In this document: positions 9,283 to 38,244 of the stretch, in pieces
Layout: every line of letters starts with the position of its first letter
How positions within the stretch are numbered: position 1 is the stretch's first letter
DNA from: a virus
Virus record (IMG/VR): IMGVR_UViG_3300046459_000427
Span: 1-64,000 of that record
DNA: 64,000 bases
Reading direction: 5' to 3' (one strand)
Notes under the pieces: generated by a model
What the model was told of the DNA's origin: nothing
Databases searched by the model: none
Seen by the model: only the letters and a program-made list of their open reading frames with translations
Program-made: the position numbers and the translations under genes

Positions 9283-9582
9283 ATGTTCTGGTTCTGCGAG
9301 ACGTGCAACGACTGGGGTGTCACGGACACCGAGGTCGACGCTGCGGTGGACCGGCAGCAGCACATGAGCGCTCACGCCGTCCGGGCGCTGGATACGACAG
9401 AGCCCCAGCAGGAGTCCGTGGCTGAGGTTGAGGACACTGTCCTCCGCGCCAAATACCTGGCGTGGGGTAGCACGGCTCTGCTGGGGCTACTGTCTGCTCG
9501 TTGGCACGCGCTGGCGGGGGTAGTGCCCTTCGCGGCCTTGCTCGCCTGGGTGGTGACCCAGTCGGGTAAAGAGGGTGAATGA
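9283..9582 (+). CDS. small membrane protein with N-terminal CxxC/HxxxH
   Basis: FCETC...QQHMSAH plus two hydrophobic segments; convergent on the tRNA cluster. Confidence 0.5.
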   Translation: MFWFCETCNDWGVTDTEVDAAVDRQQHMSAHAVRALDTTEPQQESVAEVEDTVLRAKYLAWGSTALLGLLSARWHALAGVVPFAALLAWVVTQSGKEGE

Positions 9583-9659
9583 CGGGGATTGAACCCGCAC
9601 GCTCCTTCCGGAACACCGGGGTCACAGCCCGGCGCGTCTACCATTTCGCCACACTCACC
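9574..9659 (-). tRNA. tRNA-His(GUG) with long variable arm
   Basis: G-1:C73, acceptor GTGAGTG/CATTCAC, anticodon arm CCGGG-CTGTGAC-CCCGG, T-loop TTCAAT. Confidence 0.8.
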
Positions 9660-9660
9660 G

Positions 9661-9733
<73 letters not shown>

Positions 9734-9813
9734 AAGAAAGAGAAAGTCTCGACCACGCGCTACCCACCCGGAATTTCACCGGCCTAAGCCTTGTCCGTCG
9801 GCCCTTCCCTACG

Positions 9814-9894
9814 TAGCCGAGGCGGGATTCGAACCCGCACGCCTTTCGGCACCGTCTTTTGAGGACGGCGTGGCTGCCATTTCACCACTCGGCC
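9814..9894 (-). tRNA. tRNA-Leu(CAA)
   Basis: CCGTC-CTCAAAA-GACGG, variable arm GCCGAAAGGC, GGTTCGAATCC, A73. Confidence 0.88.
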
Positions 9895-9954
9895 ATTGTG
9901 CCGGACGGCTCCCGGTCTGCCCCAGGTCACCGTCCGGCCTTTCCTGTGTGAATC

Positions 9955-10452
9955 CTACTTCACGGTGTAGCGCCCGTAGTAAACGGACTTCGTCCACGGC
10001 TTGTAGTAGTTGACACCCTTACCCGGCTTCTCGCTTTCGAGCCAGGTGTGGGAATTGACGTAGATACCGACGTGGTAGACGTAGCCGTGCGAGTCGTGGG
10101 CGAAGACGAGATCTCCGGCACGGGGCGTCTTGACGTGCATGCTGTGCCGGTACTGGTCGTTCGCGACCCGGGGGATGCTCCTCCCCAGCTTCTTGAACGT
10201 GTACTGGGTAAGGCCCGAGCAGTCGAAGCCTCTCGACGGCGAGGAACCTCCCCACACGTACCGGACACCCTTGTACTTGGCGCCCTGCTTCACGATCTTC
10301 GTGCCGGACGAAACCGACGTGGTGGACTTGACGGCGACCGGCGCGGTGACCTTCGTGGTCGAGACCGAGGTATTTGCCTGCGCGCTTGTTGCAGCGAGCG
10401 GGGAAAATGCCAGGGCGCCTGCGACCAGAAGTCCAGCGATCCTCTTATTCAT
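9955..10452 (-). CDS. secreted NlpC/P60 cell-wall endopeptidase
   Basis: signal peptide MNKRIAGLLVAGALAF..AQA; YVWGG..GFDCSGL, PRVA..Q, HVGIY. Confidence 0.92.
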   Translation of the reverse strand: MNKRIAGLLVAGALAFSPLAATSAQANTSVSTTKVTAPVAVKSTTSVSSGTKIVKQGAKYKGVRYVWGGSSPSRGFDCSGLTQYTFKKLGRSIPRVANDQYRHSMHVKTPRAGDLVFAHDSHGYVYHVGIYVNSHTWLESEKPGKGVNYYKPWTKSVYYGRYTVK

Positions 10453-10465
10453 AACAGCACTCCGC

Positions 10466-10606
10466 ACGCTTACGAGATTAGGTGACGGGCTCGGGTAAGT
10501 GCCTTTCCCTACCACAAATAGCTCTGCGGATTCGCCCCAAAAGATTCGGTCTCCCGCCCCTGTTCAGGGTTGAGTTCAGGATTTGTCCAGGAACAGGGCT
10601 CAGCGT
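10466..10606 (-). ncRNA. c-di-AMP (ydaO/yuaA) riboswitch
   Basis: CGCTGAGCCC...GGGAGACC..GGGGCGAATC...GTAGGG..CCCGAGCCCGTCACCTAA..GTAAGCG; P1 ACGCT/AGCGT; ends just before the NlpC/P60 RBS. Confidence 0.8.
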
Positions 10607-10616
10607 CTGGACAAAG

Positions 10617-10689
10617 TGGCCCCCCTTGGAATCGCACCAAGATCTCCCGCTTTTCAGGCGGGCGCATTAACTGCCTCTGCCAAAGGGCC
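10617..10689 (-). tRNA. tRNA-Phe(GAA), atypical T-loop
   Basis: CCCGC-CTGAAAA-GCGGG; T arm CTTGG-TGCGATT-CCAAG. Confidence 0.7.
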
Positions 10690-10695
10690 GTGAAG

Positions 10696-10768
10696 TCGGA
10701 AATCAGGGACTCGAACCCGTGTCTACCTGCTCCCAAAGCAGGCGCGCTGACCCTTACGCGAATTTCCG
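10696..10768 (-). tRNA. tRNA-Pro(UGG)
   Basis: acceptor CGGAAAT/ATTTCCG-A, CCTGC-TTTGGGA-GCAGG, GGTTCGAGTCC. Confidence 0.8.
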
Positions 10769-11170
10769 CTGGTTGATGTCTCCGACACTACCGTATCAGG
10801 GATACCCCTTGTCAAGCCATAAACCGCATTAGCTTGCATGGAGAGGGAAGGGTTCCCCGCCGGGTCTTACGCAGCCGCGCCTAGGCGACCGCCGCCCGGT
10901 CAGGCGGGGAACGGGAAACGGCCGAGGCAGAACGCCTTAAAGGCCGGGATGAGCGCGGGCATGCTGGCGGAGGGGAGGTGGTTCCCCTGGCCCGGCCGTC
11001 GCTCGCTCATCGTGTTCATGCATCCATTGAAGCGGATCTCGACTACGGGTTTGTAATCGCTTCCGGCCACTGCCCGAACCCCTCGCGCGAGGCGGGGGGT
11101 AGGACACTGTCCAGACATGGAGAAGGGGCCGGGGATGCACTCCCTCGGCCCCTCGGAAGAATCGGTCAGC

Positions 11171-11536
11171 TTACTTGTGCGCGTCCTGGTACTCGCGCAG
11201 CAGGTCCTCCGGCAGACGCCCCGTGTGGGACACCTCGCGGCCCTGCTCCTGCAACCACTTACGCACGTCCGCCGTGGTGAAGGCGCCCCGCTTGCCCTGA
11301 AGCGCCTTCCTCACCTGCGTACCTGTGCGCTTCTGCGCGTCGTGAGCTACCGAGATGAACGGCTGCACCGCGTCGTTCAGCGCGTCCTGGTGCTCCTCGC
11401 ACAGGTCCATGAGGTACCTCGTGGTCCCGATGGTTACCGCCGTGGGGATGTCGTCGGGCACGGGCCTGCCACAGGACTTCTCGGTGCGGCCCTTCTTCAC
11501 CTTGATATCGCAGAACTTGCTCACACGTTCACCCAT
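11171..11536 (-). CDS. lsr2: Lsr2-like nucleoid-associated protein
   Basis: YLMDLCEEHQDAL..AVQPFI and DVRKWLQEQG.EVS.TGRLP...EY. Confidence 0.8.
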   Translation of the reverse strand: MGERVSKFCDIKVKKGRTEKSCGRPVPDDIPTAVTIGTTRYLMDLCEEHQDALNDAVQPFISVAHDAQKRTGTQVRKALQGKRGAFTTADVRKWLQEQGREVSHTGRLPEDLLREYQDAHK

Positions 11537-13957: not shown

Positions 13958-14257
13958 TCATCGACAGCACCCGTCGCAGCCGTGCAGGCCCTCGTAGGCG
14001 TCATAGTCCTCGCCCTGCATCAGGCGCTTGTAGGCGAGGTCGTCCGGGTCGGGGTGGCCGACTCCGTGGGGGCAGGTCCGTTCCATCAGCGCCCGGTCCA
14101 TGCGGAAGTGCTGGGGGAAGTCGGCCATGCCGTGGGAGGAGGGGTTGTGGATGGCGCAGTGGCGGCCGAGGCAGTCCTTGCGGGGGTGGGCGAGGAGGCG
14201 TTCCCCGCCCACCAGCTCGGCTTCCTCAAACCACCCGCCGAAGTCATCGGGCTCCAT
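13958..14257 (-). CDS. Cys/His-rich conserved actinophage protein
   Basis: CAIHNPS.H...ERTCPHGVGHPDPD...HGCDGCC. Confidence 0.65.
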   Translation of the reverse strand: MEPDDFGGWFEEAELVGGERLLAHPRKDCLGRHCAIHNPSSHGMADFPQHFRMDRALMERTCPHGVGHPDPDDLAYKRLMQGEDYDAYEGLHGCDGCCR

Positions 14258-15357
14258 CAGGCGGCGTCCTCGGAGACTCCCGAGTACGGCTTGTCGTAGG
14301 CCGGGCGGACCCGCTTCCACAGCCGCGAGGAGACGTCCTTGCCGTCGTACAGGCCGAACAGCACGTCCTTGAACTCGGACTCCTGGGCCAGCAGCGCGAA
14401 CTCCTTGCGGGCGTCCCTGTCCCACTCCGGGCGGCGTACGCGCTTCTTGATCCACTCGTACTCGTCGACCGCGTCCGCGTAGACGCGGCTGTAGTCGCCC
14501 TCCAGCCGGTGCACCTGCTGGTGGACCCAGGTGTAGAACTCGTCCGGCACGTGGTCGATCCAGGACTCGATGCCCTGCCCGTTGGCGAGCGCGTCCCACA
14601 CCGACAGCGTGGAGACGTTCGTGAGGATCCGGTGCAGGCGCACGTACTCGTCGAACTTCCACTTCACCCGCAGATCGCTTTCGGGGAAGTGGACGACGAA
14701 GCCCTCCTCGTTCTTCTCCTGCGGTGCGGCCAGCACGTCGGCCAGCGAGGAGTAGTAGCCGACCGGTGCGTTCCACGGGCCCGGCCAGTCGTAGGGGTCC
14801 TTCGGCAGGGTCTTTCCGGTGGCGGTGTCGAGCACCGCGATCAGGACCAGGTCATCCATCGACTTGTAGTCGACGACGATCCGGTTCTCCGGGTAGACGA
14901 TCTCGAAGAGGTACGTCAGGCCGAGGATCGGCTCGAAGTTCGCGTAGCGGGTGCGCAGGACCTCGGTGGCGTGCAGCGCCTGGGGGCTGGTGAAGGAGCC
15001 GCGCGTGGCAATCGCGTGCTCCCCGGTATGAAGCCCGTACAGGATGCCCAGGCTGCCGTCCCACTTGAGGTAGGTGTCGACCGGCTTGTTCATCAGCCGG
15101 GCCTGCTCCTCGGCCGGGATCTGCGACCAGTTGAAGAACTTCTCGAACGGCCGGGAGACGACCTTCTCCGTGTGGGTGTCGATGATCAGGCCACGGGTCT
15201 TCTTGGTGACGTCGTTCCACTCGTTGTCGAACTGGGCCTTGTTCGTGTAGTTGAAGATGGCCCGGCTGCCGTCCGGGTGGGTCTGATGACGGACGTAGCC
15301 CTTGGTGATGTTGTCGAGAAGGGACTTCTCGTTCACGACGTCGTACAGGTGCACCAT
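14257..15357 (-). CDS. RNA ligase (T4 Rnl1-like)
   Basis: KWDGSLG (motif I), ATRGSF, FEIVYP.NRIV, EGFVV, KxK. Confidence 0.9.
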   Translation of the reverse strand: MVHLYDVVNEKSLLDNITKGYVRHQTHPDGSRAIFNYTNKAQFDNEWNDVTKKTRGLIIDTHTEKVVSRPFEKFFNWSQIPAEEQARLMNKPVDTYLKWDGSLGILYGLHTGEHAIATRGSFTSPQALHATEVLRTRYANFEPILGLTYLFEIVYPENRIVVDYKSMDDLVLIAVLDTATGKTLPKDPYDWPGPWNAPVGYYSSLADVLAAPQEKNEEGFVVHFPESDLRVKWKFDEYVRLHRILTNVSTLSVWDALANGQGIESWIDHVPDEFYTWVHQQVHRLEGDYSRVYADAVDEYEWIKKRVRRPEWDRDARKEFALLAQESEFKDVLFGLYDGKDVSSRLWKRVRPAYDKPYSGVSEDAA

Positions 15358-15386
15358 GTGTGCGCTCCTCGGTTGTGGTGGGACGG

Positions 15387-15611
15387 TCAGAGACGCTGGT
15401 CGAGGGCTGCGACCACGCGCTTGGCGAAGGTCACGTAGAACTCCTCGGGCAGGTGGTCGATGGCGAACCACTTCTTGGTCTCAAGGACGACGATGTCGAC
15501 GGCGGCCTCGCGCTTCTCGCCCTGGCGCTTGAGCCAGTCCTCGGCGGCGCTCTCGTGAGGGATGGCGAGGTGCCCGAGGTTCATGACGGGGCGGTTGTCG
15601 ATGGCGGTCAT
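15387..15611 (-). CDS. hypothetical protein
   Basis: codon bias, operon packing. Confidence 0.5.
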   Translation of the reverse strand: MTAIDNRPVMNLGHLAIPHESAAEDWLKRQGEKREAAVDIVVLETKKWFAIDHLPEEFYVTFAKRVVAALDQRL

Positions 15612-36705: not shown

Positions 36706-38244
36706 CTAACCTTCCTGGTTGATGTAAGTTGGTACATCGACTATTTCGGCGTCGATGAAACCGGTTGAGGACTCGATCATCCGGTCCGCCGGAACGGGCC
36801 TGTCGAGTGCCGTCATCTGCTCCCCGGCGTCGCGGCCGAAGATACGGCTGATCATACCGGCCCCACCGCCATTCCCCTTAGCCTCCAGTTTCACGGAGAA
36901 GGAATCCTGCTCCAGTTCCGTCTTCACCTTCACGAGTTTCTGAAGCCGGTCGATCTCACCCGACAGGTTCGGATCCGCGTAGCCACCGGTCATATCCTCG
37001 ACCATCTTCATGAAGAGGACCCGCTGCGCCTGCATCTCGATGAGTGAATTCTGGAGCGACTGCATCTGCTGCTTGCTCTTCACTTCGACCGGGATGTCGT
37101 ACGCGCAGTTGGCATTCTGGTCGAAGGCCGGGCACTTCGAGGACAGGAAGCATGACGAGCAGGCCCGCATCGACTGGCTGCGCACGGTCAGGAGAGGGAT
37201 GTCCCGCTCCTTGTTCACGCCGTCCTCGGGGTCGGTGTAGACCTCCTTCTCCTGCACCAGGCCGATGACCGGCAAGTTGGTACGCGGGCGGTCCTTCCGG
37301 GCGCCGGGAGTTGTCACCGGGTTGAGCATTTTTCCGGCCTCCGTATCAACTTCACTACCCTGCAATTGAGCGAAACCCGAAAGTACCCCTCCGGCAGAAG
37401 TAGTAACTGCTTGAGCCTCCTGCGGCCGGTGGTCATCAATCGAGGCCGCCAACTGCTGCCACGACCAGATGGTGAACCGCAGTACTTCGTCGTTCTCTCC
37501 TGCCTCGATACGGTCGGCATCGAAGCCCGCCTCGGTAAACAGCGTGCGGTGCCTTTTACGCGCCTGGTCCTTGTACTTCTTCGGATAGCGCTTCAATTCC
37601 CGGCCGGTCCACACAATGGTGTCACCGTACTGGGAAGGGGAAAGCCAGGAGGTCGACGCGACGCTGTCCCAGTTCACGGCAGCCATTTCCGCAGGCTTAG
37701 TCATAGCCACTCCGTGGAGTAGCGTGCCGTATTTCCTGGTGATCTCGTTGAGCACCGGAGTGAGATTCCGGCCGTCGAGATCTGTCTGCGTCACGCCGAC
37801 GCGCTTATACCTCTGGGCGAGTTTATCGAGTTCGTCTACGCCCCATTCCGAATGCCATATCGGAAGGAACTTGTCTTCCGGCAGGTCCTCGTAGAAGTCC
37901 TCTCGCCGGGCCTCGATCCATTCCCGTCCGAGAACGACAGCGTCGAACTCGGACACCATATGAAGGGAATCGATGTTCTGCTGGACGAATGCCTCGTAAT
38001 GCGCGGCGATGTCTTTCAATTCACCGACCGAGTACTTGTCGTCTTCGGCCTTGTTGACCGTGTAGGCGCCGGAGTCCAGGAAGACCTTCTGGCTGTCGAG
38101 GTAGTTGTCCTCGATCAGCCAGGGCCTCGTGAACTTGGTCCGGCGCCGCAGGCCTATGTACGAGAGGGAGACGGTTTCGACGCCTTCCTCGGCCAGCATC
38201 TTGCGCCAGCCGGGAATCTCGGATCCGCCAAGGAAGAGGTGCAC
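36706..38244 (-). CDS. tRNA-guanine transglycosylase (TGT/DpdA)-like TIM barrel plus C-terminal Cys-cluster domain
   Basis: VFLDSGAYT, LPIWH, LHGVAMT, DSVASTSW; CSSC...C...C. Confidence 0.55.
   Translation of the reverse strand: MHLFLGGSEIPGWRKMLAEEGVETVSLSYIGLRRRTKFTRPWLIEDNYLDSQKVFLDSGAYTVNKAEDDKYSVGELKDIAAHYEAFVQQNIDSLHMVSEFDAVVLGREWIEARREDFYEDLPEDKFLPIWHSEWGVDELDKLAQRYKRVGVTQTDLDGRNLTPVLNEITRKYGTLLHGVAMTKPAEMAAVNWDSVASTSWLSPSQYGDTIVWTGRELKRYPKKYKDQARKRHRTLFTEAGFDADRIEAGENDEVLRFTIWSWQQLAASIDDHRPQEAQAVTTSAGGVLSGFAQLQGSEVDTEAGKMLNPVTTPGARKDRPRTNLPVIGLVQEKEVYTDPEDGVNKERDIPLLTVRSQSMRACSSCFLSSKCPAFDQNANCAYDIPVEVKSKQQMQSLQNSLIEMQAQRVLFMKMVEDMTGGYADPNLSGEIDRLQKLVKVKTELEQDSFSVKLEAKGNGGGAGMISRIFGRDAGEQMTALDRPVPADRMIESSTGFIDAEIVDVPTYINQEG

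Follow-up and report, generated by a model that had tools for sequence, protein, structure and literature searches.

A predicted c-di-AMP riboswitch ahead of the gene for a putatively secreted NlpC/P60 peptidase within the tRNA array of a temperate Streptomyces phage lineage

The sensing of host and community signals by phages is of wide interest, and the riboswitches described on phages are few; among those of other classes are a c-di-GMP-I riboswitch in phage phiCD119 and glutamine riboswitches in cyanophages. In Streptomyces, riboswitches of the ydaO type are reportedly found on rpfA and on other wall hydrolase genes, which are said to be repressed by cyclic di-adenosine monophosphate (c-di-AMP), in work attributed to St-Onge et al. 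2015 and Haiser et al. 2009. A ydaO-type riboswitch also governs nlpC (cg2402) of Corynebacterium glutamicum, where c-di-AMP represses at the level of translation and affects the first gene only (PMC9960051). In the riboswitch of Thermoanaerobacter pseudethanolicus (riboCdA), the response to c-di-AMP and the repression of translation both reside in a pseudoknot (PMC11963983), which in the crystallised ydaO RNA (PDB 4QLM/4QLN) joins a hairpin loop to the 3' tail through CUCCUUCG/CGAAGGAG (PMC5393176). Here we describe a comparable leader in a viral genome, namely IMG/VR record IMGVR_UViG_3300046459_000427, of which the first 64 kb constitute the window analysed (coordinates are those of the window unless stated otherwise). 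A sequence-only reading of this stretch had proposed a phage-borne c-di-AMP riboswitch that controls a secreted NlpC/P60 hydrolase from within a tRNA operon. On the evidence given below, we consider it likely that this leader is a true riboswitch of Rfam family RF00379, carried by a temperate Streptomyces phage lineage with genomes of ~105 kb, and that it works as a translational OFF switch on the putatively secreted NlpC/P60 peptidase.

The covariance-model check proposed in the sequence-only reading (Rfam ydaO-yuaA) returned a match to RF00379 (c-di-AMP, ydaO/yuaA) at 10453-10586 on the minus strand, with 68.8 bits where the gathering threshold is 38 (cmscan, Rfam 15), an alignment spanning positions 1-134 of the 134 in the model, and E-values of 7.4e-14 for the 64-kb window and 2.9e-17 in a search of the whole record. 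With all 4227 Rfam families considered, this is the sole match in the 64 kb other than those to tRNAs. The ydaO-type segments quoted in that reading were all located on the minus strand where they had been placed, and the junction blocks GGGGCGAAUCC, GUAGGG and CCCGAGCCCGUCA-CUAA agree with the RF00379 consensus. As delimited by the family model, covariation and RNAalifold, the aptamer extends on the minus strand from the 5' strand of P1 to its 3' strand (10466-10606). It comprises P1 (ACGCU 10606-10602 / AGCGU 10470-10466), an extended 8-bp P2 (CCCUGUUC 10598-10591 / GAACAGGG 10565-10558) that closes a 25-nt loop, P3 (10557-10552 / 10477-10472), a 3-bp helix (10537-10535 / 10489-10487), a hairpin (10529-10526 / 10515-10512) and the hairpin that bears the pseudoknot strand (10509-10507 / 10495-10493). 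The Rfam alignment flags its own P1 as non-canonical ('vv'), since the extension of P2 here leads the model to misplace that helix. The closing helix ACGCT/AGCGT seen originally is the true P1, recovered de novo by RNAalifold and upheld by compensatory changes, and its 3' strand does end a few nucleotides before the Shine-Dalgarno (SD) sequence GGAG at 10463-10460.

The fold was evaluated on 16 distinct copies of the aptamer (one each from the window and a prophage, 14 from viral relatives), which are closely kin and as such afford modest statistical power for covariation. Nonetheless paired bases occupy 99.1% of the 702 alignment cells, in comparison to 36-48% in controls with slid partners, and three pairs display compensatory changes, in P1 (C-G/U-G/U-A), in P2 (U-A/C-G/U-G) and in the stem of the pseudoknot hairpin (G-C/A-U). 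RNAalifold, supplied with no input structure, returned P1, P2 and the same aptamer helices from these phage-lineage copies. A change of AAC to AAU in the 3' junction is likewise the compensatory partner of a G-to-A in P3. By its sequence, then, this leader, 164 nt in length between tRNA-Phe and the open reading frame (ORF), is a true member of the c-di-AMP (RF00379) riboswitch class, with c-di-AMP as its predicted ligand.

That the riboswitch is phage-borne, as had been claimed, is upheld both by the record in which it lies and by the distribution of the cassette. The record (104,853 bp) has terminal repeats and an estimated completeness of 100%, and the phage encodes a ribonucleotide reductase of phage type, PolA, a UvsX-like recombinase, a Cas4-like exonuclease and an RNA ligase. 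Its PolA is ~52% identical to those of the Streptomyces phages BRock, pSt2308, Alone3, LuckySocke and GiJojo, and several close protein homologues carry NCBI names as Streptomyces proteins. Furthermore, a full-length, collinear prophage occupies ~76.2-183.0 kb of contig 18 (203 kb) of Streptomyces sp. NPDC002088, with 75-86% nucleotide identity to the phage (94% for PolA) and a guanine-plus-cytosine (GC) content of 0.63-0.67 between flanks of 0.70-0.73. On the phage circle the two ends of the prophage fall next to each other, at record positions 104055 and 104153 (split at 104056-104152), and beside the attP inferred there two recombinases are encoded side by side, one of the tyrosine type (373-aa frame) and a large one of the serine type (705-aa frame), at record positions 100704-101276 (minus) and 102653-102967 (plus). 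No att direct repeat was found at the ends of the prophage, which fits a serine integrase and does not prove one. Genome content and collinearity identify this virus as a temperate Streptomyces phage and the cassette as phage-borne.

The cassette is conserved across the lineage. In all 12 viral contigs found by way of the peptidase (protein identity 51-90%), RF00379 immediately precedes the gene and the flanking tRNAs are the same. An exact-pattern scan for the aptamer core over 2.9 million IMG/VR contigs gave 23 stretches, 22 of which belong to this lineage and lie above the Rfam threshold; in these 22 related contigs the riboswitch scores 49.2-71.9 bits and the order tRNA-riboswitch-P60-tRNA is kept, and the prophage copy scores 59.8 bits. 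A second pattern scan, for the canonical bacterial form, gave one further contig, IMGVR_UViG_2932454522_000001 (51.6 bits). On that contig, which derives from an isolate genome and may represent the host flank of a predicted prophage, the riboswitch precedes a LysM-M23 peptidase. Rfam scans upstream of the P60 homologues of six cultured Streptomyces phages (pSt2308, KimJongPhill, BRock, Rainydai, Wakanda and Lululemon) found no riboswitch in any of them; a blastn search of 50,697 phage records with the leader yielded chance matches only, and megablast of the first 25 kb gave matches to tRNAs only. Among 401 sampled Streptomyces genomes, the phage-type aptamer was present in the lysogen alone. 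The identity between leaders (0.76-0.99) exceeds that at third codon positions of the adjacent gene (0.55-0.84) in each of seven usable pairs, one relative with out-of-register ungapped codons having been left out, and this slower change relative to synonymous sites argues that the leader is under selection in the phage.

The gene under the presumed control of this leader (9955-10452, minus strand, stop codon included) encodes a putatively secreted NlpC/P60 (C40) peptidoglycan peptidase of 165 aa, as had been read from the sequence at the outset. It matches Pfam PF00877 NLPC_P60 (E 8.5e-23, 80.8 bits); its catalytic pair Cys78 (within DCSGL) and His127 is invariant in 12 homologues, Glu139 and Glu141 are candidates for the third residue, and the nearest solved structure is 9ubf_A (E 1e-21). 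The N-terminus MNKRIAGLLVAGALAFSPLAATSAQA consists of MNKR, a hydrophobic stretch and AQA/N, an arrangement that appears Sec-like by eye and is conserved in relatives. Orthologues gain or lose a LysM domain between signal peptide and catalytic domain (proteins of 207-220 aa contain it, those of 163-165 aa lack it), and the riboswitch is the same in either case (six relatives noted). A second NlpC/P60 domain resides in a 1038-aa frame outside the window (record 84204-84488, minus), which is probably a virion or tail-associated lysin; as such, the small secreted enzyme is not the sole wall hydrolase of the phage.

The arrangement has ample precedent on the host side. The chromosome of the lysogen holds eight other copies of RF00379, which lie upstream of M23 peptidases (three), NlpC/P60 proteins (two), an SLT transglycosylase (one) and unassigned ORFs (two), so that six of the eight precede wall hydrolase genes; each has its SD and start codon within ~15 nt of P1. 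Chromosomal P60 homologues of Humibacillus, Intrasporangium and Terracoccus also carry the riboswitch, and the phage peptidase is ~45% identical to the host's small riboswitch-controlled P60. Judged by these likenesses, the phage unit is a copy of a standard actinobacterial module and ostensibly a ninth member of the host's c-di-AMP wall-hydrolase set. No diadenylate cyclase (DAC) domain and no AtaC-type phosphodiesterase domain was found in the phage, and one DAC was found in the lysogen; the ligand must therefore be the host's, and the phage can probably tie its peptidase to the host c-di-AMP level. Given that the phage is temperate and that its promoter (below) looks host-type, the peptidase may be a lysogenic-conversion gene that is regulated together with the hydrolases of the host; with equal standing, it may be an accessory of the lytic phase. 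A temperate phage could also express it from the prophage, instead of or besides during lytic growth. The earlier proposal that wall remodelling is timed by the osmotic or germination state of the host is a matter of pure inference.

The architecture of the leader suggests how such control could be exerted. The ATG at 10452 lies 14 nt past P1, which leaves no room for a terminator. The SD region (10457-10463, minus strand), in which GGAG (10463-10460) overlaps the 3' strand of the pseudoknot, GAGUGC (10462-10457), is invariant in all copies, and the spacer between SD and ATG varies. The 5' strand of the pseudoknot, GCACUU, lies in a hairpin loop (10497-10502, minus strand) at the position occupied by the pseudoknot strand in the crystallised ydaO RNA (sequence in PMC5393176); it too is invariant, and the 5' part of the same loop varies. 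GCACUU is complementary to GAGUGC, with an SD-region duplex energy of -6.5 to -9.2 kcal/mol, and this pairing of loop and tail covaries between family members (CCUUCC/GGAAGG, CUUCG/CGAAG, UCUCC/GGAGA, ACCUC/GAGGU, GCACUU/GAGUGC in the phage and CUCCUUCG/CGAAGGAG in the crystal). A second element is found at the 5' end of the leader, where strand a (UUUGUCCAG, 10607-10615, minus strand) begins directly after tRNA-Phe and can pair with strand a' (CUGGACAAA, 10582-10590, minus strand) within the loop of P2. Strand a is invariant except for one C-to-U that retains a G-U pair, and strand a' except for one A-to-G that retains a U-G pair; the rest of the P2 loop varies around the latter. The two strands form a perfect 9-bp alternative hairpin which encloses the 5' strands of P1 and P2, has an energy of -12.9 kcal/mol alone, and is part of the predicted minimum free energy fold at every transcript length tried (-55.6 kcal/mol with the hairpin vs -47.3 kcal/mol with the aptamer enforced). 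In folding predictions this hairpin forms first in every transcript prefix. A further pairing in the RNAalifold output joins the 5' strand (A)CUUUGU (alignment columns 1-7) to GCGGAGU; it lengthens P1 and contributes -4.9 kcal/mol, and through it the 5' strand, once freed from the hairpin, may serve as an anti-SD.

It is reasonable to postulate the following mode of action. At high host c-di-AMP, P1, P2 and the family pseudoknot GCACUU/GAGUGC would form, the pseudoknot would cover GGAG, and with the ribosome site buried the peptidase would not be made; the P1 extension, with the 5' strand CUUUGU on GCGGAG, may add to the blocking of the SD. At low c-di-AMP, the 9-bp 5' hairpin would form first during transcription and trap the 5' strands of P1 and P2, whereupon the aptamer and pseudoknot would collapse and the gene would be translated. 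There are observations that weigh against this account. Within the phage lineage the strands of the pseudoknot, of a/a' and of the P1 extension are near-invariant and lack compensatory change; only three changes occur in them, all one-sided and wobble-compatible. Since one and the same GAG is needed for both the pseudoknot and the P1 extension, at most one of these two pairings can be fully right. Predicted accessibility of the SD in the ligand-free state shifts with the length of the RNA folded, and as a consequence the ON state lacks an in silico demonstration. The signal peptide, moreover, was judged by eye only. We rejected thermodynamic ligand-free SD accessibility as evidence on account of these unstable predictions; a pairing partner for the SD proposed by RNAfold in longer transcripts, UCCGC at 10530-10526, was also rejected, as it is not kept in one relative.

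The unit is situated, as had been noted from the start, between tRNA-Pro/Phe and tRNA-Leu/Asn/His, all of which ARAGORN and Rfam place on the minus strand: tRNA-Pro (UGG) at 10695-10768 (Rfam 47.8 bits), tRNA-Phe (GAA) at 10616-10689 (Rfam 54.7 bits, ending at 10617), tRNA-Leu (CAA) at 9813-9894, tRNA-Asn (GUU) at 9660-9733 and tRNA-His (GUG) at 9573-9658. The CCA of tRNA-Phe is not encoded and its discriminator A stands at 10617, so that 3' processing would leave the start of the leader at ~10616. A promoter-like element (10785-10815, minus strand), to which we ascribe promoter function on the strength of its conservation, lies ~17 nt upstream of tRNA-Pro and consists of TTGACA (10815-10810), a 19-nt spacer and TAGTGT (10790-10785). 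The blocks TTGACA and ATACnGTA..T are invariant in eight diverged relatives, the flanks vary, and this is the sole occurrence of TTGACA-N19-TAnnnT in the window. A consensus promoter scan of 9300-11300 called nothing, the strict sigma-70 search having missed the element because of its 19-nt spacer. A conserved GCAAG is also present ~18 nt upstream of the TTGACA (10810-10839), and the downstream block GATACnGTA occurs in the window only at this promoter.

As this is a single conserved promoter and no other was found, the tRNA array is probably one transcript. Between the stop codon and tRNA-Leu is a GC-rich hairpin (GCCGGACGG / CCGUCCGGC, 9900-9938, minus strand) with no U-tract, which is retained in relatives with different stem sequences (e.g. 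GGAGGG/CCCUCC) and was not called as a terminator; it could stabilise the 3' end of the mRNA after cleavage by RNase P, or act as a U-less terminator. The location inside a tRNA array suggests an unusual route to the mRNA, in which RNase Z and RNase P would excise the flanking tRNAs and so release a defined message that runs from the riboswitch to the 3' hairpin. Two further genes of the window concern tRNA. An RNA ligase of the T4 Rnl1 type (PF09511, E 4e-15; 14257-15471, minus strand) is encoded a few kb from the array and may serve tRNA repair against host anticodon nucleases. A queuine tRNA-ribosyltransferase / DpdA homologue (phrog_887, E 1e-75; 36706-38244, minus strand) coincides with the lowest-GC stretch of the window (0.594).

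The alternative with the most direct bearing on the array is control at the level of transcription, whether through attenuation that needs no canonical terminator or through Rho-dependent polarity after translation has been blocked, in which case the riboswitch would gate the peptidase together with tRNA-Leu/Asn/His. We regard this as unlikely. It would accord with the fact that no separate promoter was found between the ORF and tRNA-Leu, owing to which the downstream tRNAs probably rely on read-through, and with the nearest host precedent, S. coelicolor rpfA, for which, to the extent that St-Onge 2015 is cited in PMC9960051, a riboswitch of the same class without a canonical terminator changed transcript levels, a report that also counts against translational control of the phage gene. 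However, only 14 nt separate P1 from the ATG, no terminator-like site was found in 9300-11300 (consensus promoter/terminator scan), and in C. glutamicum neither transcript levels nor the second gene of the operon were affected by the nlpC riboswitch (PMC9960051). The conserved hairpin after the stop codon may in addition insulate the tRNAs, and in relatives 380 nt or an ORF intervenes ahead of the later tRNAs, downstream of the gene, which indicates that the linkage of gene and tRNAs is loose. The suggestion in the sequence-only reading that the unit could gate the tRNAs downstream is, for want of a terminator, given so short a distance to the ATG, and in view of the first-gene effect in C. 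glutamicum, improbable; were control translational, as we favour, these tRNAs would not be gated.

A translational OFF switch that answers to host c-di-AMP must also be set against explanations that concern the nature of the aptamer and its origin. At a junction base conserved in the family, the lineage has a G-to-C change, from GUCAGCUAA to GUCACCUAA (CAGCUAA to CACCUAA; GUCACC at 10481-10486 of the window), which has no change in a pairing partner and through which the affinity for the ligand, or its identity, could differ, a further point against our interpretation. The C is invariant in all 23 phage copies and in the prophage, and G is present in each of the 14 bacterial copies read. One might accordingly suppose the aptamer to be a phage-lineage variant of altered affinity or specificity, for another cyclic dinucleotide or for a range of c-di-AMP different from that of host riboswitches, a supposition with which the confinement of the phage-type pattern to the lysogen among the sampled Streptomyces genomes, and the extended P2 with its conserved element peculiar to the lineage, would be in keeping. 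The high overall score and the agreement of all other conserved blocks speak against it, the AAC-to-AAU deviation merely compensating the G-to-A in P3, and we deem it very unlikely. That the lineage has in effect retuned the aptamer by means of the G-to-C, the extended P2 and the switching hairpin, toward another cyclic dinucleotide or a concentration range other than that of the host's eight, is a similarly long shot; if true, the phage may sense, e.g., a nucleotide of a defence system and not merely follow the wall-hydrolase regulon of its host. It is highly improbable, in our estimation, that the leader is an inert passenger, captured with a host hydrolase gene and devoid of a regulatory role in the phage. 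The module does copy a host arrangement, and the six cultured Streptomyces phages manage their P60 homologues without a riboswitch, but the leader changes more slowly than synonymous sites in all seven comparisons, its pairing is preserved through compensatory changes, and it is present in 23 of 23 lineage members, even where protein identity falls to 51%. There is, last, almost no chance that this stretch is host sequence assigned to a viral bin in error. Prophage-derived IMG/VR contigs can include host flanks, and the sole other viral contig with a riboswitch of the canonical type comes from an isolate genome; here, though, the cassette is found 10 kb into a 104.9-kb record with terminal repeats, among phage genes such as the RNA ligase and at a phage-like GC of 0.63-0.65, is syntenic in 22 viral contigs, and in the lysogen sits ~11 kb inside the low-GC prophage block and not in its flanks.

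In the literature searched we found no published c-di-AMP riboswitch on a phage, whose existence elsewhere is possible. The riboswitch class, its association with NlpC/P60 genes and the pseudoknot mechanism are already known; what is new is the presence of a c-di-AMP riboswitch on a phage and its retention inside the tRNA array by a whole lineage, together with a competing hairpin of its own and one unexplained change of a conserved base. In the literature searched and in two exact-pattern scans of the 2.9 million viral contigs, c-di-AMP riboswitches came to light almost exclusively in this one lineage, which provides a clean case of an aptamer under purifying selection in approximately two dozen phage genomes that mirrors the c-di-AMP wall-hydrolase regulon of the host. 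A cultured lysogen, Streptomyces sp. NPDC002088, appears to exist, and disA/ataC mutants are established in Streptomyces, which opens to test whether the phage reads host c-di-AMP, whether it does so in lysogeny or in lysis, and whether the leader acts on translation.

Compared with the described systems, the phage leader shares most with riboswitches of its own class. The Thermoanaerobacter riboswitches resemble it in their helices, junction blocks and a pseudoknot between loop and 3' tail that includes the SD (PMC5393176, PMC11963983); they differ in the sequence of that pseudoknot (CUCCUUCG/CGAAGGAG vs GCACUU/GAGUGC in the phage), and in the phage RNA P2 is far longer and a competing hairpin lies upstream. 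The C. glutamicum nlpC riboswitch is of the same class, likewise precedes an actinobacterial NlpC/P60 gene without a canonical terminator, and has itself been proposed to form a pseudoknot that pairs with the ribosome binding site (PMC9960051). It is, in contrast, chromosomal and heads an operon of seven genes (PMC9960051), whereas the phage copy is set in a tRNA array and has the extended P2 and a 5' hairpin that competes with P1/P2. With the riboswitches on S. coelicolor rpfA and on other wall hydrolase genes, the phage leader has in common the host genus, the class and the regulon logic of secreted wall lytic enzymes; those are host genes, however, and the phage aptamer carries the lineage-specific G-to-C. 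The riboswitches of phiCD119 and the cyanophages differ in ligand class, and in each of them, as in the phage lineage described here, an RNA of host type that responds to a metabolite or second messenger is placed before a phage gene.

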